DNA from: Schmidtea polychroa
Lineage: Eukaryota
Direction: 5' to 3'
NCBI GenBank assembly: GCA_044892525.1
Contig: CM097886.1
Coordinates: 135,408,001-135,472,000, forward strand
Length of the DNA: 64,000 nt
The notes beneath the pieces are model-generated. The model saw only the letters and a list, made by a program, of their open reading frames with translations. It was not told where the DNA came from and did not search any database. Below, piece after piece: positions 16,601 to 60,769 of this stretch (position 1 is the stretch's first letter; each line of letters opens with the position of its first letter). The position numbers were made by a program, and so were the translations under genes.

Positions 16601-18031
16601 GTTGAATGGATCGCGGCACGATCACTGGTACGTACGCGTGAGATTAGCTTTGATGTTTTTGTCTTTATGCGAGATTGATGGAATAAACTTCATGTCGTAA
16701 GAGTGTCACTGAAAATTTCATAATGCCTGATGTGCGAGAATAAATGACCACTCCAACCAAGCCCGGAAATACCCTTCGACCTTGTTTTTCCTGTGCCGAT
16801 AAAAATGCAGATATCGCACAGCTGCACTTATACATCGGGGAATTAAAGAAGAGAATTGACCTATACGAAGGAACGCGGTTCTCCCCGCCACAAATGAAGG
16901 AAGAGAAGAGCAAAATTCTACGTTCGGAGCACTGCCGTGACAGTCTCCTAGAGGAGAGCAGATGCCAGAGGCTAACCATAAAAGCCCAATCAGAGGCACT
17001 GCACAAAGTATATTCTGAATCCGAGATAGCGAAGCGAGTTCGCGAATATCCAATTCAAGATGGGACTAACGTGTTCCCAGGACACCATCAATCCGCGGAA
17101 ACCTCATCAACAACCAGTTGCAAGGGGCACGGCCTACAACTACCACCAATTCCCGCCCCAGTCCTTTCTGGTTATCGGCCTATGGCTGGCGGTCCATCGG
17201 ACCCTATCTTGGCTCCAGTCCTCGTGTCGCCACTCACTCAGCCTCCAGCAGAAGCCACATTTCCACATCGAAAGCGTAAGAGACAGACGCGCTCAGAGAA
17301 AAATCAGAAGCGCAGAAACGCCATGGCCGCGCTCGAAGCATCGTTATCCGCAGCCAAGTCGACTATCAATGAAATTACAAGCACCCATTCCATCCCTACG
17401 AAAGAAGTATTTCGGGTAGTTCCGGCCGACAGCATCAAATTCCTCGAAGATCGACATTGACGAAATGGTCGCAGAAGGAGAAGTGTTTTCGTAACGAACC
17501 TTTCCCATTGGCCTCAATTTTCCGTGCAGTATGAAGGAACTCGAAGAAGTTGACGTTATCCTGTACATGACCTTTGATGTTTTGTTCTTATTTAATAAAT
17601 GGTGAATGTATCTTTATGTTTCGCTTTAATACCACTGTTCGAATTCTTTGATTTTGTCCATAGTATGTGTGGTTTGCTGTAGTTGATTTGAGTAAAAGAT
17701 GCTCCTGGAGACATAGTACGAGCTTAAACGTCGTCCCTTTGGACCAGGGTCGGACGGAATTATGGGTGAAGAAGCGGGTAAGACCTTCTAAGGCACCATG
17801 GAACCCGAACCGAGAAAGGGTTAGGAGTAGTCCTAAGGCCGGGGCTCACCTGCTAACCTTTTCCGACCCGTGTAAGCAGCACCAACGTGGAACATCACCA
17901 CGGGCTCATACGTGGGAATATGTATTTGATCATTTGGAGTATGTATGGGAAGTGGCTGAGCGGAAAATAGTACTTGGTATGTACAATGATCATGTGGGCA
18001 TATCTTTTCTCTTTCCCTACATACCCCAACA
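13626..18031 (+). mobile_element. giant (4406 bp) solo-LTR-like element, copy A
   Basis: TGTTGGG...CCCAACA termini; 4-bp TSD TAAT; colinear homology blocks with 43972-49539 (reverse complement). Confidence 0.75.
16744..17494 (+). CDS. unknown ~250-aa protein inside element A; small frameshifting deletion near the C-terminus
   Basis: Homolog of 44503-45264 with mostly synonymous differences. The frame stops at 17460, but the homologous tail IDIDEMVAEGEVFS* continues in another frame to 17494. Confidence 0.8.
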
Positions 18032-43310: not shown

Positions 43311-43892
43311 AGCGAGATCTTAAGTGAATGTGTGTAAAGGGCAATAAATAAGGGTAAAATCAAATTTTTTTTAGGAAAATACATGTAATTTGGTTTAAAT
43401 TTATGAAAACTATATATATCTTTTATTTTGGGCTGATAATCTATGTGTGTCTGTATATGAAAACATTGATAAGGAGCCAAAATATCAAATCAAATCTCTT
43501 ATGTTTTACATTTAACTATATTAATCAATAAGAATCATAACTAGTATTAGTATAAATTAAACAGTATATTTAAAATTAATGTACAATGTCAAAATCAAAT
43601 TTTGCAGAAAACATCTTAAAAGGTTTGGTTAATGAGAATATCGCACAAAGCCTCAGTTTCCTGGTTAAGCAAACTGAGAAAATCATTGAGGGAAACCATG
43701 TCGACTACCAGACCATGCTTGATATGTAATGCCTGGAGACGAAGAAATTTTATTTCAATAGGATCTTCGACTGTCTATTCGACGACCAAATGAAGTGAAC
43801 CAGAATAATCATAGGTTTTACCTATATGAAGATTATTATAGAAAGGAGTCTATAAGATGCTGACCATTATAATCTGTGGTCTCAAGAAGTCA

Positions 43893-44502: not shown

Positions 44503-45264
44503 TTAGGCAAAGCCATCCCCGTCGGCAATCATCTCGTCGATGTCGACAGGTAATCGACAGTCCGATATAAATTTGATGCCGTTGGCCGGAACAATGCGGC
44601 AGATTTCTTTCGAGGGGATTGAGTGTGTGGACGATATTTCTTTGATCTTCGAGTGTGCCACTGATAAGGACGCTTCGAGTGCTGTTATTGCATCTCTGCG
44701 CTTTTTATTCTTCTCTGCCCGGGTCGGTCGTTTTCGTTTCCGAGACGGCGGGTGATTTTCGGCCACTGAGGTCACAACGGGGGCCACGAGGACTGGGGCC
44801 AGAATGGGATCCGAAGGACCGCCTTTCATTGGTAGATAGCCCGACAGTACTGGGGCTGGGATGGGCGGCAGATGTGAGCCATGCCCCTGACAATTTGTGG
44901 TGGAAGATGTAGAGGACTGGTGGTGGAGAGGGAAAACGTTCGTTCCATCCACGACAGGAAATTCGCGCACCCGTTTGGCTAGTTCTGCCTCCGTATAGAC
45001 CTTGTGGAGGGCTTCGGACTGGGCCTTTATTGTGAGTCTTTGACAGCGGCTCTCCTCCAGGAGGCTGTCTCTGCAGTGCTCTAATCTGAGGATCTTACTT
45101 CGCTCTTCTTTCATCTGTGGCGGGGAGAACCACGTTCCTTCGTAGAGGTCTATTCGTTTCTTGAGAGCCCCGATATACAAGTGAAGTTGGGCGATATCCG
45201 CGTTATTGTCAGCACAAGAAAAACACGGGCGAAGTTCTTTAGCATTGTTGGACGGTGTAGTCAT
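44503..45264 (-). CDS. unknown 253-aa protein inside element B (CxxC, coiled coil, Pro-rich segment, RKRKR basic patch)
   Basis: Intact ORF; high amino-acid identity to 16744-17460 with abundant synonymous changes. Confidence 0.85.
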   Translation of the reverse strand: MTTPSNNAKELRPCFSCADNNADIAQLHLYIGALKKRIDLYEGTWFSPPQMKEERSKILRLEHCRDSLLEESRCQRLTIKAQSEALHKVYTEAELAKRVREFPVVDGTNVFPLHHQSSTSSTTNCQGHGSHLPPIPAPVLSGYLPMKGGPSDPILAPVLVAPVVTSVAENHPPSRKRKRPTRAEKNKKRRDAITALEASLSVAHSKIKEISSTHSIPSKEICRIVPANGIKFISDCRLPVDIDEMIADGDGFA

Positions 45265-48523: not shown

Positions 48524-49789
48524 TATTATCATTTTCTCGAAGCATCTAATTTTTACGACATCTTCTGGATGCATATTCTGAAAATTTCTCGCGGCCGTGT
48601 TTTCCGCCGTGGCATACCTCTGGCTCGTCCACATCATACCTGAAGCTCCCAGATGGTACAGTCGCCTGCACCATGAAGAAAGGCTGTTTTTCATTTGAAT
48701 AAATTTATTGTATGAAATTGTTTTTAATCATATTTACAAAAAAAAATAAACCAGATTAAACCAACAACCATAAATAAATCAACTGCTGAGACATACCTCA
48801 AGTTTCGAAAACTTGATTAAATCGATTGAATTTGGAATTTGTCCTGAATAGATTTGTCGTTTGATTACTATATATTCCTTCCTAGATTTGGTTTCGTAGT
48901 CTCTGGAATAGTTCGCTGTTGGATAATTGAGTTAAATGTTCCGTAATCTGTAGGGTCTTGGTTAAGTTGTTTGGTAGGCTGTAGAGTATTTTTAAAAAGT
49001 GGTCAAATAATCAACAAAATTTTACCTGTAGAGTATTTTTTAAAAGTGGTACTCTACAGATATTTTCCGTTCCTTATATATTATTTTTTATTATAATATA
49101 TTAGATTTTAATGACTTAACTTATTTCTTATTATTATTTTATTTATTTTCTTATTTTTATTATTTTTCTCCTCTTTTTTCTGCGGATTTATTGCTATTTT
49201 ATGGTAATATAATTTTTTGTTTTAATTAGACTTAAGGATAGTTTTATTTTTATTTATTTCTTTAATTTCTCGTTTATTTTTCTCACTTTTTTGCTTATTC
49301 TATTTCTACTTTATCCGCTGTGTGCCTTAAATCATTTCCCTTTTGTCTTATTTCCAAATCTTAGGGGTTTTATTTATTTTGGTTACTTATTCCTATTTCT
49401 TTTGTTGGTATTTTATTGTTTCTCCCTATTTACTACTGAGATTTCGCGATAATTTATTTTTTATCTTATTTCGTTTATTTTTCCGAGGTTCGTTTCCCTA
49501 TTTGATCCAGTTTTCTCCACTTCAAAATTTAGCCCAACAATTATTATTATTATTATTTATAATATTAATTTGTAAGTAGTCAAACATAAGTTTTCGCCAT
49601 GGATCGATTCCAATGGGGGATGGGACACACTAGTCGAACTTGCCCAGAACGCACAAGAAATAGAGCAAGCCAAAGCGAAAGTCAAATGTTATATGCGATT
49701 AGCTATGGAAGTTTTATTATATGCAATGTGTAAATATTTAAATAAAAGTTAATGTTATTTATAAATATTATACTTAAAATATACACTCA

Positions 49790-51501: not shown

Positions 51502-52044
51502 TCAACAGCCAATTAGATATCGAACAATCAGAATGATGCCTTTTAATTGCACTGAATTTGCAATCACATGATATTTTAAATAATTAATTGATAATAAAAA
51601 ATCTAAAAATTCTTTTCCTTCAATTATTGATTTTATTTCAGATATGATGTTATCAACTATACATTTGTAATCAATACTTTTTACGCCAAGAATTAATATC
51701 TTTCCACTAGCAAATATATTATCACACATAGACTTATATTTTATATATATCAAAGCTGGAAATAATTCTGGCTCGTAAACGAATGCTATTAATTTAGCCA
51801 AGTTATTTAAATTACAAGAAAAACCCATGTCAGAAGTTACTGTCATCGATTGTATTTCTAAATCATAAACATTATATTCACTAGCTTTGATTATTTCCTT
51901 ACATTCCATAATTCTAAATTTACCAGTTTTGAAATATATTATTGGATATTTGTTACTTCTATTGATAATTTGTTAGGGTTTTCCATTTGGAAATATCATT
52001 TTTGATACATCAGCCTTTGCACTGTAATTTATATTTGAAAGCAT
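51502..52044 (-). pseudogene. TATA-binding-protein-like gene in the Polinton, one premature stop
   Basis: Repeat 2: EIQSMTVTSDMGFSCNL...YEPELFPALIY...IFASGKILILGVK. Repeat 1: IIYFKTGKFRIM. TAA at 51973-51975 in codon 24. Confidence 0.8.
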
Positions 52045-52139
52045 TTTAATGAAATAATTATAAAACTCGGATATATATAGTTATTTTTAAAAGGAGTTCA
52101 CTTAAATTATCGATATAAACAAAAACTATATAGTTTAAA

Positions 52140-52764: not shown

Positions 52765-52970
52765 AACATATAAAACATGTTTTCAAAAATCAGGGTAACA
52801 AGGAAGAAAAAACCGAAAATTCACCCAACAACTAGTTATACTCCATCTGAAGAACTTATTACTGAAAATTTTCCTGCAAAAAATCTTATTTCGAAAAATC
52901 CTAAACCTAAACCTAAACGTAAAACCAGTAAGCGTTAGGAACTAGAGCCAGATTAAAACTGGATAATCAA

Positions 52971-53669
52971 ATGGCAGAGGAAGCTAATATAAATGCATTT
53001 GCCAGATATCCCGCTCTGCCCGTAAAGGCATTCAGCGGTGATCCGGGAGAATTCCCAGAGTTTATGTCTGAATATTATCAGATTGCCAAAGCATATGCTT
53101 ATCCAGATAATATCATGATACAAAGGCTACCTATATATTTGAAGGGGCTGGCAAGAGAAAAATATAATGACATTATGGCATTACCAGTTGCTCAAGCACC
53201 GAAAACATGGGCCGAAATGAGAGAAGCAATGACTGCTCGAATATTGCCCGGAGATGCGGGAAGAATATTTAGACAACAATTTTATCATCGAAAACAGAAT
53301 GCAAATGAACATGTGGGGGAATTTGCACACCAGCTATCATTAATTGCTGAAAGAGCATTTGGACCAAAAACCACATGGGCAAAGCCAACAGAATTGTTAG
53401 TTAAGGATCAGCTATGGGCAGGACTTACGCCTACAATGAGGAACGCCCTAATATTACATACTAGTGATGATTTTGACGAATTGACACGGAAAGCTGTCGT
53501 AATTGAAAGCAGCTTGGAAAAGTCAACCATGTTCCTTGTAAACAGTGAGAGAACACCGGTAGAGTGTTTCAATTGCCTTAGAAAAGGGCATATAGCGAAA
53601 GATTGTACCAGCAGGAAAATTATGGACAATCGCAAAAGTATACAATGTACCAAATGTGGAAAATTGTAG
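52971..53669 (+). CDS. gag: Gag capsid region + CCHC knuckle
   Basis: FSGDPGEF.EF...Y...A; YLKGLARE.Y; KQNANEHVGEF; CFNCLRKGHIAKDC. Confidence 0.88.
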   Translation: MAEEANINAFARYPALPVKAFSGDPGEFPEFMSEYYQIAKAYAYPDNIMIQRLPIYLKGLAREKYNDIMALPVAQAPKTWAEMREAMTARILPGDAGRIFRQQFYHRKQNANEHVGEFAHQLSLIAERAFGPKTTWAKPTELLVKDQLWAGLTPTMRNALILHTSDDFDELTRKAVVIESSLEKSTMFLVNSERTPVECFNCLRKGHIAKDCTSRKIMDNRKSIQCTKCGKL

Positions 53670-55515
53670 AGTGCAGAATTTGCAATGTGAAAAACGCAAA
53701 CGAAAGGGACACGTTGCTGCAGTCTGTAAGACTAGAAGCTCTCAGAACAGCAATAATTTTAGTACGGTTAAAAGAGATGATGTAAATTCATCAGGAAAGA
53801 TAAAATGTCACGGATGTGGGAAATTCGGACATATGATGAGGTCATGTCCTCAGAATCAGAGTGGGAACACGGGGCAGTTCAATAAAAATACCGATAAGGG
53901 TAATGTGAACAAGCCTAAGACAACTTTTATGGTTAACCAGGATCAAGGATTAACTTACCTGCAACAACTGGAAATGGAAATCCAGGAGGAAAAGAATAGG
54001 TTGGCTAGATTGACCGACCAAGAAGGCACCATCTTCATGGTAGAAGTTGGAAGAGATGAATTTCTCAGAAAAAAGGATTCTGTTAGAGTGGACCTTCAGG
54101 AAACGGAATCAGAGGAGAGTTTCGAGAATGAACCTAGTATGGCCACCATACTAAGCGAGTTTGATGTAACCTTGCCAGGGAAAGCAAAGGTAAAAGAAGG
54201 GTCAGATACCCTAACAAAATGTTTAAAACTGGTGGATTCCAGATATGAGTACCAGCAGAAGCTGGCCAGACAATTGGGAAAATTGGGAGAAACAGAAATT
54301 AAAATTCATGAAATCGATACAGTAGTAAAACTGATATCGCAGGTCGAAGATGATCCAAAGTATCATAACGACACATACAAAATCCTAAGGAAATTAGGAA
54401 AACTTATGGAACATGAGTGGGATCTCCAAGATGCCCAGCTCAATATAAAACTCCCACAGGATAAAGAGTATAATCTCGATATAAATGTAAGAAGTCGAGC
54501 CGATAAATTAACGGAAGCATTGAAAAGTATTAAGCATCAAGGATATGACTTATACTTATGTGGAACAAAACTAGAAGCAAATCAAACACTTCTACAGAAC
54601 GGGATACTCCCAGGTAGAGTGACGAAGCTCACAGCAAAGAGAGCACAAAAGACAGTGGCAGTAATGGATCAAGATAGCGTATTCTTGATTACTCAGATGG
54701 AAATAGAGAGATTGGAGGAAACTCAACAATTAACCCAGCGACTAGGGTTGGAATTGCAGAAATCTCCACGAGATGGAGAAACTATAAAGGAAATACTTGA
54801 CTGGATGTTAGTATTACGAATACCAGTAGATTTGTTGGAAGCAATAATTCCACTTATACTACCAGTAGTAAAGGAAACAAGCCCATTCCAGACGCAAATT
54901 GAAGCGCTGATGAGGAAAAATGGGAAAGCTATCCGAAGTCAGCCTGATAGACAAGGCAACATTAATCTAGACGTGCGAATGATGGGAAAAGAACCATTAA
55001 CAATGATTTATAATTGTTATATCAAAGTCAAAATATTAAGGAGAGATGTGATTGCCAGCGATCAAACTACAGGTATATTCCTGATAATGGTCCATGGTAG
55101 GCAAGTGGATGATGATGAATATCTAGTGGATGTGGGTTGTCTACCGTTGGCAACAACCACGGTAATGATCATCCCAGTAACTCCACCAGAGTCCCAGTGG
55201 TCATTAATGAGACTGCCAGATATAACAAACGAAATTGCGGAAGAAATCGAGGAAATAAGACTAGAGGAAATTAATCACTGTCAAATGGTGGACATTGACG
55301 AGGAAGATTACTTCTCAGAGTACGTCAGATTAAATCCAGGAGAAACAAACGTAGGAGCTACTACGTCACAAGCTATAACAAATCCGGAGACTGAAAAACC
55401 TCCGGAGAAAGTGAAAAAAGATGGACGAGGACGTCCTAGAAAGGATCAAATGAAACCTCCACCCAAGGAGCAGTTAAATCCGGAAACGATTCGGAAAATT
55501 CAGTTAAAACATTAG
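53656..55515 (+). CDS. Gag continuation: two further knuckles, two putative ubiquitin-like domains, AT-hook
   Basis: CEKRKRKGHVAAVC; CHGCGKFGHMMRSC; Ubl-like 54439-54642 and 54961-55176; GRGRPRK 55423-55443. Confidence 0.7.
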   Translation: MENCRVQNLQCEKRKRKGHVAAVCKTRSSQNSNNFSTVKRDDVNSSGKIKCHGCGKFGHMMRSCPQNQSGNTGQFNKNTDKGNVNKPKTTFMVNQDQGLTYLQQLEMEIQEEKNRLARLTDQEGTIFMVEVGRDEFLRKKDSVRVDLQETESEESFENEPSMATILSEFDVTLPGKAKVKEGSDTLTKCLKLVDSRYEYQQKLARQLGKLGETEIKIHEIDTVVKLISQVEDDPKYHNDTYKILRKLGKLMEHEWDLQDAQLNIKLPQDKEYNLDINVRSRADKLTEALKSIKHQGYDLYLCGTKLEANQTLLQNGILPGRVTKLTAKRAQKTVAVMDQDSVFLITQMEIERLEETQQLTQRLGLELQKSPRDGETIKEILDWMLVLRIPVDLLEAIIPLILPVVKETSPFQTQIEALMRKNGKAIRSQPDRQGNINLDVRMMGKEPLTMIYNCYIKVKILRRDVIASDQTTGIFLIMVHGRQVDDDEYLVDVGCLPLATTTVMIIPVTPPESQWSLMRLPDITNEIAEEIEEIRLEEINHCQMVDIDEEDYFSEYVRLNPGETNVGATTSQAITNPETEKPPEKVKKDGRGRPRKDQMKPPPKEQLNPETIRKIQLKH

Positions 55516-55551
55516 CAGGGATAGCCCAAGAAATGGACGACCAGGCGGGAG

Positions 55552-56799
55552 ATGAGACAACGTCAGAAAGGTCGTTATTTGATCGTGATTATCAGGCCCG
55601 AATGGAGAATTCCAAAAATCAAGGGGATCGAAGTAAAGAAAATAACGAAAGAGGTCAAGAAGACAATGGAAAGAATATCCAAAGATGTATCAACTAGAGA
55701 TATACAGGATGCCATAGAAGCATTCGTGCAGCAAGGATTAACAAGAGGGAAAGTGGTAACATCACTATCATTGTTAATTCAAAATGCCTTAGCCCGGGTA
55801 GGGGATGATTAAAGGCTTATAGAACGAGAAATCGATCAAATAGTCGAAATGGTAGATTATTACCTGGAGGTATGGATGACCGTAAACAAATTTTGGGAAA
55901 AGGAAACGATTCCAAAACCACGATATGAGGTAGTGGAAGAAGCTATAAATAATGGTAGTTCAGGCACAGGAATTTACGCAATATTTGTAATTTTAAAGAT
56001 GATAATTACGCAATTGATGTCAACATATAGCATATTCAAAATTGGGGGATGGTCATGGAAACTGCTATTAGGATTATGTCCTATGTGTGCAGAGTTTGCA
56101 TTATTCAAACATCACAGAAAAGAAATTAAAGAAATTAGACAGAAACATTTGGTCAAGCATGAAGTAATTGGAACAGAAATGGAGGAGTATTCTAGTTATC
56201 GGGATGATAACAATTCAAAGGGAGGAGGTAATGGAGGCTCTCGTGAAACATTTTCAAGATCAAATCAATCACGAAAACAGAACTACAACAAAAAACCGAT
56301 TCAGCAACAAAGAAAATCGAGATTTAAGGAATATCTTCCTCCATATGACCAATCAAAGGAAATCTACGTGAGAAAACAGTCCTCAGAAGGAGAATATGAC
56401 AGTTCCGACCAAAAATTCGACATAAGGTCACCCAGATTCAAGAGAAGTCCAAGATATGTACAATTGCCAACTTCGAGGAGTTTACCATCCGCACCAAACG
56501 AGGGGCGGGAACATTCGAGGGAAACAACACTCAGAACAGGACGACCCCAATGGAAAATCGGTGAAGATACCATATTTAATAATTTGACATGCTCAACATT
56601 GCCAGAATTACCTAAAGTGCATTATCCAAAGCAAGCGTTAGAGTCAATTAAAGCTAAATTTAAAGAGTATAATCCTCATCTGAGTGATCCTGAATTACTG
56701 GAAGCAGAACAAACGAGAGCCAATACAATCGGTATCTCGCACGATACTATCTTGATGGTCAATAACCCAGTGAACTTGGATAAAAAGCAAATGATATAA
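55552..56799 (+). pseudogene. polyprotein segment with putative Bcl-2-like domain, hydrophobic helix and basic linker
   Basis: Same frame as the upstream and downstream ORFs; one internal TAA (55810-55812); BH1/BH2-like motifs. Confidence 0.6.
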
Positions 56800-56805
56800 A
56801 TAAGA

Positions 56806-57351
56806 GTGAACCGACATACAGTTAATGCGGTGATAGACTCAGGAGCAGATGGTACCATAATTGAAGCTAAATTGTTAAACCATCATGAACTGCAGTCGCT
56901 AAAACCGGCAGGAGTAAAATTAACAGGAGCAAACGGATCCTCATTAAACGTAATAGGGTCATTATCCTGCCAGATTAAGCTATGTGACCAGGAGCTCCAT
57001 CACGACATCATAGTGATGAGAAGTCTCCCAGCCGAATGTCTATTGGGTATGGACATCCTAAAAAGACTACGAGGAGTAGTATTCGATTGTGCATCTGGAT
57101 TGTTAATCCGAGCACGAGGTAAAAAGAGAAAAATTTACAACGATGATACAGCTTATATAGATCATACAACTATCATACCACCCAGAGCAGAAACGGTATG
57201 CTTTGTAGCTACAAGCAATAATTGGGAAGGTGAAGTTGTATTCGAACCAAACGAAAAATTCTCGGAGAAATACAACATACCAGTTACTCATAGCGTAGGT
57301 TTAATAGTCAATGGCAGAATACCAATCAGGGTAGCCAATCTGGACAATTAA
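56806..57351 (+). CDS. retroviral-type aspartic protease and post-protease spacer
   Basis: NAVIDSGADGTII...LLGMDIL; IIPPRAE...EP...IPIRVAN. Confidence 0.88.
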   Translation: MNRHTVNAVIDSGADGTIIEAKLLNHHELQSLKPAGVKLTGANGSSLNVIGSLSCQIKLCDQELHHDIIVMRSLPAECLLGMDILKRLRGVVFDCASGLLIRARGKKRKIYNDDTAYIDHTTIIPPRAETVCFVATSNNWEGEVVFEPNEKFSEKYNIPVTHSVGLIVNGRIPIRVANLDN

Positions 57352-57367
57352 CCACTTTACTTATATC

Positions 57368-60362
57368 CAGTGGTGATATTCAGCCGGTACGGGGCGGTAC
57401 GCTCGTACCGGTTGTTAACATTTTTAAAATTTTCCGTACCGGTTGTATATTAAAAAAAAAGTATGTTTTTAAGTTAAAGTATGTAAAAGTAAAAGTATTG
57501 ATAAAAACATTCTAAATTACTAAAAAAATATAAAAATTTACCTGCCATTATCGATCAAATACAAAAAATCTTACAATAAAATAAAAATTTGGGATTTAAA
57601 ATTTTTTTCAGTTTTAGTAAAAAAAAATCTACTTAAAACTGTCTAATTTGAATTTTAGTACTTTTAATTTCCACTACAATCCAAGAGATGGCATTGAATT
57701 ATAGAACAAAATTTATGGAATTTAAAAATTCCTACTGAGCATGTGTAAAGTTGCATTTATAGGTGGTTTCACCGCGTAACCACTAAGCTTGAAAGGGTTA
57801 ACGGAAAATTCTGTAAAAAAAAATATTTTTCTTTTAATAAAAAGGGAATTTCCCTTTTTGAATACATTTTTATTTTGATATATTTACTCTAAATAAAAAG
57901 TTTAGTAGTATAAATATTTTTATGGTGAATGGTTATCCCTTACTTTTAATCTCTATTAAATGCAGTTTTAACGTGCAAGTATGAAGATTTTAAATTGATT
58001 TAAATTTCTAATTAATTATTAATTAATTATTAAATATTTTCTTTGTTTCAACCTAAGAATGAAAAGGCAAGGTAATTTGGATGACTTTTTTAGCAAATCT
58101 ATAAAAATAACCAAAAACCCTGAACAGCAAGCTGAGAATATTACTAATTCTAATCAAACAAAACAGGTAAAAGAAAAAAATGATACTTCTGAAGTTCAAC
58201 ACCAATCGGAAAAAGCTGGAACGTCTCGTGATGCTGCGTTATTACATTTTTGGAATGATAAACAACTAAATTATTTTAAAACTAAATACGAGTGGCTTAT
58301 TGTTGTTAGCGATGAAAATGTGGTGTTCGAAAGTAGAATCGTTAAATTTAGAAACTGCTAAACATTTACACATTTCTGTGGAGTGGAAATCATGTTCTGT
58401 CAAAGCTCATGGCTCGAACAAAGAAAATTTACAATCATCAATGAGAAAAAAATTGAAGGAACACAATGAATCAGCTTCACATAAAAAAGCTGGGGAAATA
58501 ATAAAAATTGGTGAAACAAATATAATTTCCAAATCTTTCGATGTGGCTAATGAAAAGTATTTAAACAGCACAGTAAACATTTTTAATACTATCTATTTCA
58601 TAATTAAAAACAATTACCCATTCAGTGATTTTAAAAAATTAATTGATTTACAGAAAAAAAATAATGTAGATTTTGGATTTTCATTACATTCCAGATTTAT
58701 AGTTCCACTTGTCGCAAAGCTTATATCTACAGAAATAAGAAGAATTATTTTTGGAAAACTGATAAATACAGGTTGTAAAATTTCAATTATTATTGATGAA
58801 GCCTCAACTGTTTCACACAAAAGCGTTTTAGTAGTTTATTTGAAATCTGAAATTCAAGATTCCGATGATAGTGTAACAGTTTTTATTGATCTTGTCGAAT
58901 TAGAAGGAACAACATCAGAAATAATTTTTAAAACCTTAATATCAGTTCTTGAAAAACATGGTTTTAATGAAAAATATTTACATGAAAATCTTATTGGATT
59001 TTGCTGAGACGGTGCTAGTGTAATGTTAGGAAAAAAGGCTGGAGTTTCTGCAAGAATTTTAGAACATTTTCCAGGTATTAGCATCTGTCACTGTTTAGCT
59101 CATCGTATTCAGTTAACTCTAGATGATGTTATCAAAGAAGTAAATGAAGTAAATAACTTTAGATATTTTCTCGATAAACTTTATTCGTATTATCATACTT
59201 CAAATAAACATCAACGAGAATTAAATAATGTTTTTAAAGAACTTGGCACTGAAGTACACAAAATAGGTAGAATATTTGGTCCTCGATGGGCAGCCTGTAG
59301 CGCTAGGACCGCCAAAGCAGTTTGGAAATCATATCAGGCCTTATATATTCACTTTAGTCTAAATAAAGAAATTGGAATAATGTCATATTTCAAAAATGAA
59401 AACTTTTTAAAAGATTTAGGTTTAATAAACGACATATTAGAAGAAATTTCTGTACTGTCTACAGCTTTACAAGAAAGAGATATTTCATTAATTAGAGCTG
59501 ATAGATTGATAAGGCGAACGATAAATCTATTCCAACATTTAAAATTAAATAAAGGAACATATGAAAAAGAAGCAGATGATATTATTAAAACGAAAATATA
59601 CAATATTCCATTTGAAATTAATAGAAAAAAAACATCAATTGTTGTTTCGAGAGATACATTTTTTGATTGTTTAGAAAAACATATGAAAACGCGTTTGCTA
59701 TTAGACGATAAAAATGAAAACTATAATAATCTCTTAAATTGCTTTAATTTATTAAATCCAGAAACATGGCGGGGTGATATTTTTGAAGCACCATGGATTG
59801 AAGGTGAAAATAGGTTAGAGCAGTTAAATAAAATAATCAAATACATCATTCCAGTAAATGATTTTCGAGATTTTGTTGATGTGCGAGATAGAGAATCTAA
59901 AAATATTAATACTATTTTGAGAGTAAAAAGAATTTTAAATGTAATTGCTGTTAATTCCGCAGAAGCTGAAAGAGGACTCAGCACAATGAACAATATCATT
60001 TATGATAAGAGAAATTCGTTGTTAATTGAAACAACAAGTCATTTAATGACAATAAATTTAATAGGAAAATCGATTGAGGATTTTGATGCAACACCATATG
60101 TTAAATTATGGTTGCGAGAAGGGCATCATATGGCAAGTGACAAACGTGTCAAAGCAGCCGCACCTAATTTGCCGTCCCAAAACCAAAATTTAATTTGGAA
60201 ATTATTTAATTAATTTTATATACTATTTTTTATATTATTATATATAATATATGTATTTCTTATGTAAATATGTAAATAAATAACTATTATGAAGTAAATA
60301 TAACCTACAATAGATTTTTTTCCATGCGTACCGGTTGTTAAAAAATTCGAATATCACCACTG
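57368..60362 (+). mobile_element. near-full-length hAT (KIAA1586/ZNF862-like), 2995 bp
   Basis: 14-bp perfect TIR CAGTGGTGATATTC; subterminal ACCGGTTGT motifs; right flank is (TA)n, so there is no TSD. Confidence 0.9.
58059..60213 (+). pseudogene. hAT transposase with one frameshift (~58330) and one stop (59005-59007)
   Basis: IIDEAST; GFC*DGASVM; HCLAHRIQL; RW; SAEAERGLSTMN dimerisation domain. Confidence 0.9.
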
Positions 60363-60769
60363 TATATATATATATATATATAAACGAACGTGTAACTAGC
60401 TTTTTATTGTTAAATAAATATTTTAAACATATTTCTTATTTATTTATTTACCTACACGCATAAATTAATTATTTGGAGTCAGATAAAACGTTTTTGTGTT
60501 AGTTCGAAGACATACCCATCGAACCTAACACTGGAAAAGACAATTAAGAATAAACAATGAATTATTATTATTATTATTATTTAACTTTTTTGTCCATATT
60601 CTTTTGCAGGTTTCGAAGTAACAAAATATTCCTCAATTACGACACAATCGCTATCTAGAAAATAATATATATATTTATTTTCTTAAAAAATTTTCATTTA
60701 ACCCTTAGTTATTGCCCTTTACACACATTCACTTCAGATCTCGCGTAGAAATATTTTTCTATCCTTAAG

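Follow-up and report, generated by a model that had tools for sequence, protein, structure and literature searches.

Dugesiid planarians harbour Burro (GYPSM1), a group of giant gypsy-like elements with long terminal repeats (LTRs), as described by Jurka 2007 and Grohme et al. 2018 (via PMC6431247); PMC11410931 gives their size as above 30 kb. They were described to encode BCL2-like and Ubi/SUMO segments as well as an in-frame env (Arkhipova and Yushenova 2019, PMC6431247). According to the same source, the BCL2-like motif was first noted by Grohme et al. 2018, and the env product is related to mononegavirus fusion proteins. BURRO1 and BURRO4 are expressed after PIWI knock-down (PMC8532177), and PMC13465017 cites the BIR-RING protein of Burro1 (B-IAP; Lee et al. 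2026 Dev Cell) as protecting planarian stem cells from caspase-mediated death. Here, we analysed a stretch of 64,000 nucleotides from Schmidtea polychroa (assembly GCA_044892525.1, contig CM097886.1, positions 135,408,001 to 135,472,000, forward strand), referred to as the window in the following, which carries the remains of a Burro-like element whose polyprotein contains a divergent Bcl-2-fold domain. An earlier reading of the bare sequence (the original prediction) had proposed such a domain within a retroelement polyprotein, and profile, model and structure matches bear this out. Its pointer to Burro elements with extra polyprotein domains proved to be the right lead, as PMC6431247 describes BCL2-like segments in Burro. 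The novelty it implied does not hold, since Burro polyproteins are already known to have a BCL2-like motif and to have it ahead of env. In the literature examined, we found no paper testing structure or function of the Burro BCL2 domain; Grohme et al. 2018, Lee et al. 2026 and the supplements may cover it.

The family to which the window element belongs, termed family A, shares with Burro (PMC6431247) a long open reading frame (ORF) in which Gag with CCHC motifs, a BCL2-like segment and an in-frame envelope (Env) protein precede protease (PR), reverse transcriptase (RT), RNase H (RH) and integrase (IN). Burro1 further encodes a Ubi2/SUMO-like segment at a position matching a weak ubiquitin-like (Ubl) candidate in family A (PMC6431247). 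Of the two Ubl domains originally predicted, the first persists as this weak candidate (Rad60-SLD E 0.13, ubiquitin-like PDB chains E 0.4-0.9), and the second gave no match. Family A is smaller, with elements of 14.6 and 18.0 kb, LTRs of ~1 kb and an ORF of up to ~3,370 amino acids (aa), compared with >30 kb and 4,873 aa in Burro1. No Pfam match to MATH, BIR or ankyrin was obtained in the family-A frames scanned, all of which Burro1 proper has. Family A is possibly the counterpart of a named Burro family, with Burro-2, -3 and -4 as candidates.

Within the 781-Mb genome of the same species, a DNA search returned 299 candidates, the best 40 of which were scored and are all 92-100% identical to the window element. 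A protein search, for which the best 150 of 441 candidates were scored, gave 130 matches of 53-100% identity (family A, some representing pieces of one copy) and 20 of 35-38% identity, mostly from a second family, B. At least four family-A matches lie in open frames of 3,366-3,369 codons, and two copies are bounded by LTR pairs of ~1 kb that are 98-99% alike and span the above 14.6 and 18.0 kb. In a 2,890-aa part of the frame of a longer copy, Pfam recognizes zf-CCHC ahead of the Bcl-2-like domain and, behind it, Monjiviricetes_fusion Env (PF24664, E 6.6e-85), protease, RT, RNase H and integrase in this order. The complete order in open frames reads Gag, zinc knuckles, Ubl-like, AT-hook, Bcl-2-like domain, putative signal peptide, Env, PR, RT, RH and IN. 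Recovery of these copies shows that the domain is kept in the polyprotein frame ahead of Env, as the original prediction had anticipated for the frame; its direct adjacency of Bcl-2 domain and protease is not supported, as the domain sits between Gag and Env. Related families have the same layout, with frames of ~3,050-3,090 aa in family C, 3,334 aa in D, 3,419 aa in E and 3,437 aa in F. A Burro1-type element in the same genome encodes Gag, MATH, Env, PR and RT, followed by ankyrin-like and BIR-RING frames. Immediately ahead of its Env lies a homologue of the domain, detected by profile at E 1.2e-5 among a small number of frames.

Thus, the Bcl-2-like domain occupies the same slot in seven families, A-F and the Burro1-type element, whose RTs are as little as 40-56% identical (44-45% between the Burro1-type element and family A). 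This shared slot suggests one capture in a common ancestor of the families. A tree of 20 domains (11 from retroelements, 6 from host genes, 3 from Polintons, no outside animal sequences) left nine of its 17 inner branches open; the retroelement rows require two changes and form one group in 19% of bootstrap trees. The phylogeny versus host proteins envisaged in the original prediction thus neither shows nor excludes a single capture and names no donor. A single outside relative, P0001 (32% identical), was found in a HMMER library search. It combines the Bcl-2-like domain, the signal helix and pieces of Env with the tail of a voltage-gated calcium channel and is most likely a chimeric gene prediction.

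Sequence profiles point to the Bcl-2 family with increasing clarity as more families are added. With the A+B profile, BOK ranked first and second of three rows from the PDB sequences (E 0.04 and 0.076). The A+B+C profile recovered BOK at E 0.0013, with 59 of the 60 matches listed belonging to the Bcl-2 family, and the five-family profile A-E recovered Bfl-1/A1 at E 3.6e-5, with 60 of 60. Aligned by hhalign to nine Bcl-2 exons of the same genome (mostly host genes, one or two Polinton-borne), A+B reached a probability of 41% (E 2.8e-4) and A-E one of 95% (E 4e-8). The Pfam profile PF00452, named as a check in the original prediction, fails on family A but matches its sister families directly: B at E 1.3e-3, D at 2e-3, E at 7.7e-6 and F at 3.6e-4, all with 19-27 bits and thus under the curated cut-off of 31.4 bits, which three family-C copies exceed (32-33 bits). 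For the family-D domain, the ESM Atlas returned BFK/BID clusters at 0.90-0.91 with low recognition, which serves as a lead only; the family-A domain had no usable match there and found nothing in three word-index protein searches. RdgC, the best match of the family-A domain among PDB sequences (E 0.039), was rejected as chance.

Structure prediction converges on the same family. For an open-frame family-A copy, AlphaFold was run with 21 rows, consisting of 20 element segments from six families and P0001, without any host Bcl-2, and yielded a model with a predicted local distance difference test score (pLDDT) of 83.8 and a predicted template modelling score (pTM) of 0.77; three of the five models exceeded 81. 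When compared with 48,161 chains by VIA-align, all 25 rows with Z≥8, and indeed the first 32 rows, have a Bcl-2 fold, while the first unrelated row appears at Z 6.0. The best match is Hydra Bcl-2-4 (Z 12.5, root mean square deviation (rmsd) 3.0, 124 aligned residues), followed by Trichoplax Bcl-2L2 (Z 12.4), at identities to the structural matches of only 6-14%. All 44 rows listed by Foldseek likewise belong to the Bcl-2 family. A search of the viral structure library returned nothing at E≤0.001. The modelling proposed in the original prediction thus turned out in its favour with element sequences alone. Since a clean gap separates these matches from unrelated rows and the sequence profiles agree, we accept from the model that the domain has a Bcl-2 fold, though a much diverged one, despite Z values below 13.

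Most structural alignments span model residues 22-147 and begin at the first helix of the Bcl-2 chains, which makes helix 25-40 alpha1 and helix 55-67 (window position 55633 onward) the helix at the position of the third Bcl-2 homology motif (BH3). This register is also seen in family E, where Pfam position 1 falls on the matching helix, and in family D, which reads BH3-like there. The BH3-like helix that the original prediction recovered further upstream by restoring one base exists at 55506-55538 and is in frame in other copies. In the window, it lies in another frame. As it falls outside the core 22-147 of most structural alignments, it was rejected as the domain's own BH3. This extra N-terminal helix (model residues 4-17, pLDDT ~51) is conserved in families A, B and C and is not aligned in D. 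At BH1, families A and B keep G-K at the glycine-arginine position, and the BH2 tryptophans (W-x6-W) are invariant across families. In all seven families, 15 hydrophobic residues with a mean hydropathy of 1.97-2.87, and small residues behind them, stand just before the start of Env.

Several observations weigh against the assignment of the domain, or against its working as a BH3-binding protein. As a single sequence, the family-A domain has no PF00452 match in Pfam and no Bcl-2 match among PDB sequences by phmmer. A first AlphaFold model built from three families reached a pLDDT of only 42 (its Foldseek list, 38 Bcl-2 rows among 44 at E≥0.34, was not relied on); the confident model may thus owe much to those families whose BH2 motif is clearer. 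No Foldseek row for this confident model attains E≤0.001 (best 0.029), and Z values under ~13 can reflect a common arrangement in helical bundles, as the tool warns. The model lacks alpha3, a 6-residue loop joining the BH3-position helix to alpha4. The BH3 Gly-Asp pair has been replaced, by T-K in family A and by A-T in family D. Family A has T-R-G-K at BH1 where two host genes have N-W-G-R, and in families C-F an acidic residue, D or E, takes the place of the BH1 glycine; this glycine and the arginine matter for BH3 binding. The hydrophobic helix after BH2 also reads as an Env signal peptide, with cleavage judged by eye. Finally, neighbouring segments show ratios of nonsynonymous to synonymous polymorphism (pN/pS) of 0.10-0.30, so that the domain is not more strongly constrained than the segments around it.

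Substitution patterns indicate that the domain is under purifying selection. Ten pairs of families or sub-families were compared; in all but one, which was saturated, the ratio of nonsynonymous to synonymous substitution rates (dN/dS) is 0.11-0.49. Within family A (28 copies), pN/pS amounts to 0.19 for the core and 0.06 for the extra helix (segments were represented by 15-28 copies each, copies with indels being dropped).

Compared with cellular Bcl-2 proteins (Hydra Bcl-2-4, Trichoplax Bcl-2L2, Bfl-1/A1, Bcl-xL, BOK), the match covers the whole domain, beginning with alpha1 and ending with the BH2 helix (Z 10.4-12.5, rmsd 3.0-3.4, ~120 residues), and family A keeps the BH2 tryptophans and the BH1 glycine. 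Unlike them, it is part of a polyprotein, shares just 9-13% identity, has no alpha3 in the model, shows a degenerate BH3 and NWGR motif and has an extra N-terminal helix; in addition, the membrane helix that follows reads as the Env signal rather than as a free C-terminal anchor. Viral Bcl-2 proteins (herpesvirus M11, BHRF1 and KsBcl-2; poxvirus CNP058 and M11L; A179L of African swine fever virus) are alike in being divergent versions of the fold on a mobile genome (Z 7.1-11.1). Bcl2 and IAP (inhibitor of apoptosis) homologues are also reported for adintoviruses (PMC8502044). The Bcl-2 proteins of DNA viruses, including adintoviruses/Polintons, are free-standing genes, whereas the retroelement domain is a polyprotein segment that needs excision. 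B-IAP of Burro1 represents an anti-death module on the same group of elements, yet one of a different protein family that targets caspases; it is a separate 392-aa ORF in the Burro1-type element of this genome and was not found in the family-A frames scanned.

We consider, with moderate confidence, a membrane-anchored anti-death decoy to be the most likely function. The polyprotein would be made with its Gag, Ubl-like, AT-hook and Bcl-2 parts in the cytosol, and the hydrophobic helix ~30-55 residues past BH2 would act as the signal that threads Env into the endoplasmic reticulum, before a second membrane helix at the Env end brings PR-RT-IN back to the cytosol. If signal peptidase cut after the first helix, this same helix would keep the Bcl-2 domain attached to the membrane, so that the Env signal peptide could double as the tail anchor of the Bcl-2 domain, while the element's protease could free the domain from Gag. 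Thus tethered, it may act in the manner of a viral Bcl-2, capturing host Bak/Bax-type or BH3-only proteins as a decoy and so preventing the death of the cell in which it is expressed. Our doubt about this decoy arises mainly from the altered groove. A complex prediction of the domain with a host Bak-like BH3 exon speaks neither for nor against the decoy (score 0.01, in a run that did not use the alignment and for which controls were not folded).

Possible, but in our view clearly less probable, is a Bcl-2 fold without BH3 binding, i. e. a scaffold that blocks another host pathway or aids Env topology, membrane bending or particle budding. Bcl-2-fold poxvirus proteins such as A46, A52 and B14 block other host pathways. 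A52, B14 and A46 are among the structural matches (Z 7.2, 5.7 and 5.1), and the degenerate BH1 and BH3 positions, the missing alpha3, the acidic residues at the BH1 glycine in families C-F and the fixed position directly before the Env signal helix in seven of seven families would all suit such a scaffold. Against this, the highest scores (Z 12.5-10.6) belong to canonical pro-survival proteins of cells and clearly exceed those of the poxvirus scaffolds; moreover, the BH2 tryptophans are invariant and related elements bear a second anti-death module, BIR-RING.

The decoy reading can be extended into a bolder scenario, which we put forward as tentative and rather doubtful: the retroelement polyprotein would yield a working viral-type Bcl-2 with the Env signal peptide as anchor, the BH3-like helix of families A-C would plug the groove until removed by the protease, and host stem cells would receive anti-death genes by the hundreds from several unrelated kinds of mobile element, with the Polinton-borne Bcl-2 genes and the IAP of Burro1 included.

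The opposite activity is improbable. A pro-death or pore-forming role of the domain or its extra BH3-like helix, aiding particle exit or removing competing cells, could be read from BOK being the top sequence match of the A+B and A+B+C profiles and from the strong conservation of the BH3-like extra helix (pN/pS 0.06). Yet, these BOK matches are weak (E 0.0013-0.076), the helix has no counterpart of the aspartate that the Bak-like BH3 of the host contains, and an element of the germ and stem cell lineage would presumably gain little by killing it. Very unlikely, too, is the reading as a captured relic whose sole remaining role is that of a spacer keeping the polyprotein frame open. While the families have diverged to 13-41% identity to family A and constraint is similar to that on neighbouring segments, dN/dS is well under 1 in all nine measurable pairs, the fold is confidently predicted as a complete Bcl-2 bundle, and the domain is kept in seven families despite their distant RTs. 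Chance resemblance of a helical bundle with two tryptophans, to which the missing single-sequence match of family A and the low identity to structural matches might point, is largely refuted and hardly credible, as profile, profile-profile and structure searches converge on one family and the sister families match PF00452 directly (E 7.7e-6 to 2e-3, with three family-C copies over the cut-off).

Turning to the window itself, we are highly confident that it carries a defunct copy, parts of which have been deleted, of a Burro-like gypsy element that has env and, just before Env in its polyprotein, the divergent Bcl-2-fold domain (Table 1). The fragment is without a 5' LTR, most of env is deleted, and RT, RH and IN are absent, leaving only the part from gag to protease. 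The BH1-like and BH2-like (W-x3-N-x2-W) stretches, the hydrophobic stretch and the AT-hook named in the original prediction are all present in the frame of the protease; the GRGRPRK motif at 55423-55443 is what we take to be the AT-hook. The paired BH1+BH2 pattern occurs once in the window and in none of 200 triplet shuffles, a weak test, as the pattern was written from observation. Not mentioned in the original prediction are the stop at 55810-55812 and short deletions that shift the frame near 53660, 55505 and 55580, with the one near 55580 taking out most of alpha1; further stops occur at 56797 and 57349. The window copy cannot itself make a Bcl-2 product and is the poorest example of its family. 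Its left edge (52920-52932) adjoins Polinton/Maverick DNA with a packaging-ATPase-like ORF at 52134, and among the 40 scored matches this joint is spanned by the window itself only.

Table 1. Positions of the element fragment, its parts and adjoining features in the window.
Feature	Position	Strand	Evidence or remark
Decayed Burro-like gypsy LTR element fragment (family A)	52929..57370	+	95-97% identity to two longer copies, in two blocks
gag with CCHC zinc knuckles, split by a frameshift near 53660	52932..53860	+	Pfam Retrotrans_gag E 2.8e-4; zf-CCHC E 1.1e-5, 0.019
Possible ubiquitin/SUMO-like domain (weak)	54436..54606	+	Rad60-SLD E 0.13; 3 of 8 PDB rows ubiquitin-like, E 0.42-0.92
AT-hook-like GRGRPRK motif	55423..55443	+	Sequence; common to families A, B, C
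Extra amphipathic BH3-resembling helix ahead of the Bcl-2 core	55506..55538	+	Out of frame in the window copy
Bcl-2-fold core	55563..55915	+	alpha1 mostly lost; model made from an open-frame copy
BH3-position helix	from 55633	+	Within the Bcl-2-fold core
BH1-like stretch	55729-55755	+	
In-frame stop between BH1 and BH2	55810-55812	+	
BH2-like W-x3-N-x2-W	55873-55896	+	
Joint of in-frame ~1.7-kb deletion (Env signal peptide and ectodomain gone)	55967..55972	+	BLAST blocks overlap by 6 bases
Env C-terminal membrane-spanning remnant	55969..56148	+	PF24664 positions 548-612, E 5.5e-5; hydrophobic stretch 55969-56019
Aspartic protease, DSGA at 56836-56847, stop at 56797 just before	56800..57075	+	gag-asp_proteas E 3.3e-13
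hAT DNA transposon at the right break of the fragment	57368..60362	+	14-base terminal inverted repeats; hAT dimerisation domain E 0.023
LTR 3' end remnant of the element, 167 bases	60364..60530	+	83-94% identity to the LTR ends of two copies

The hydrophobic helix at 55969-56019, taken for a tail anchor in the original prediction, owes its position to the deletion. The window aligns to other copies as two blocks that overlap by 6 bases (55967-55972), with ~1.7 kb, a multiple of three, missing between them. In the frame of a longer copy, the helix corresponds to aa 1607, whereas BH2 lies at aa 998, ~600 residues away. Of 19 other loci, 18 have another hydrophobic helix after BH2, behind which Env begins, and in the remaining one no BH2 could be read. 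The helix at 55969-56019 is therefore ruled out as a tail anchor; it belongs to the Env end (PF24664 548-612) and was brought beside BH2 by the 1.7-kb deletion of the window copy only. The proposed BH3-BH1-BH2-TM (transmembrane) anatomy falls with it, its TM being an Env remnant and its "BH3" lying outside the Bcl-2 core. A spread sub-family with Bcl-2 fused to the Env end is likewise ruled out, given that just one of 40 scored matches (224 candidates) spans the joint, namely the window itself. The joint is also not among the best 15 of 17 joints from four sequencing runs covering family A, a coverage that cannot show transcription.

Some family-A copies have further features. A 748-756-aa accessory frame follows the polyprotein in two of the loci, designated here by L numbers (L023:1380-3647, +; L028:4418-6661, -), and one copy has a 776-aa antisense frame (L028:7004-9331, +); neither accessory nor antisense frames had a Pfam match at E≤0.01. 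One copy contains a stretch of 3.7 kb near its 3' end twice in tandem (L023:3247-6965, L024:671-4389; 99.97% identity) and hence has three downstream LTRs, which reflects either a recent duplication or an assembly artefact.

The window contains a second, unrelated Bcl-2 homologue, a two-exon Polinton/Maverick gene (43586-43888 and 49576-49752, +) whose exons lie ~5.6 kb apart. The first exon is interrupted by three stops, shares 70% identity with a copy found elsewhere and matches the Bcl-2 exon profile of the genome at E 1.5e-8. Between the two exons sits one copy of a repeat with a 238-253-aa frame, whose two window copies (16744-17457, +; 44503-45264, -) are 71% alike. The Polinton/Maverick further encodes, beside its ATPase, a TATA-binding-protein (TBP)-like frame (51502-51972, -; PF00352 E 5.5e-13). 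Genome-wide, at least two multicopy kinds of short Bcl-2 genes make up dozens of the best 150 PF00452 matches scored: a two-exon type near Polinton-type ATPase and integrase frames (L131, L133), and an intronless type with a 152-aa frame beside a TBP-like-looking frame and a long endonuclease-VII-bearing frame (L132, L134). Host-type genes include seven near-identical copies of an apparently intronless Bcl-2 gene with intact NWGR, clustered on one chromosome (L061-L067, contig C4, 89.9-90.8 Mb), and two neighbouring Bak/Bax-like genes, one with a canonical BH3 exon (L148:9623-9799 with L073) and one with a degenerate BH3 exon (L149:3250-3447 with L075); a further Bcl-2-like piece lies at L148:1985-2266. 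The BIR-RING (IAP) frame of the Burro1-type element measures 392-393 aa (L135:4643-5818, L136:4660-5838), and most of the best 150 of 309 BIR matches lie in frames of this length.

Taken together, and as far as the literature examined goes, the present analysis adds to the known Burro BCL2-like motif support for the fold at the level of structure, evidence of purifying selection from at least seven families of a single genome, and a topology that can be tested. If the domain blocks Bak/Bax, it would represent a viral-type Bcl-2 encoded by a retroelement and, beside the IAP of Burro1, a second route by which transposons may support the survival of planarian stem cells.

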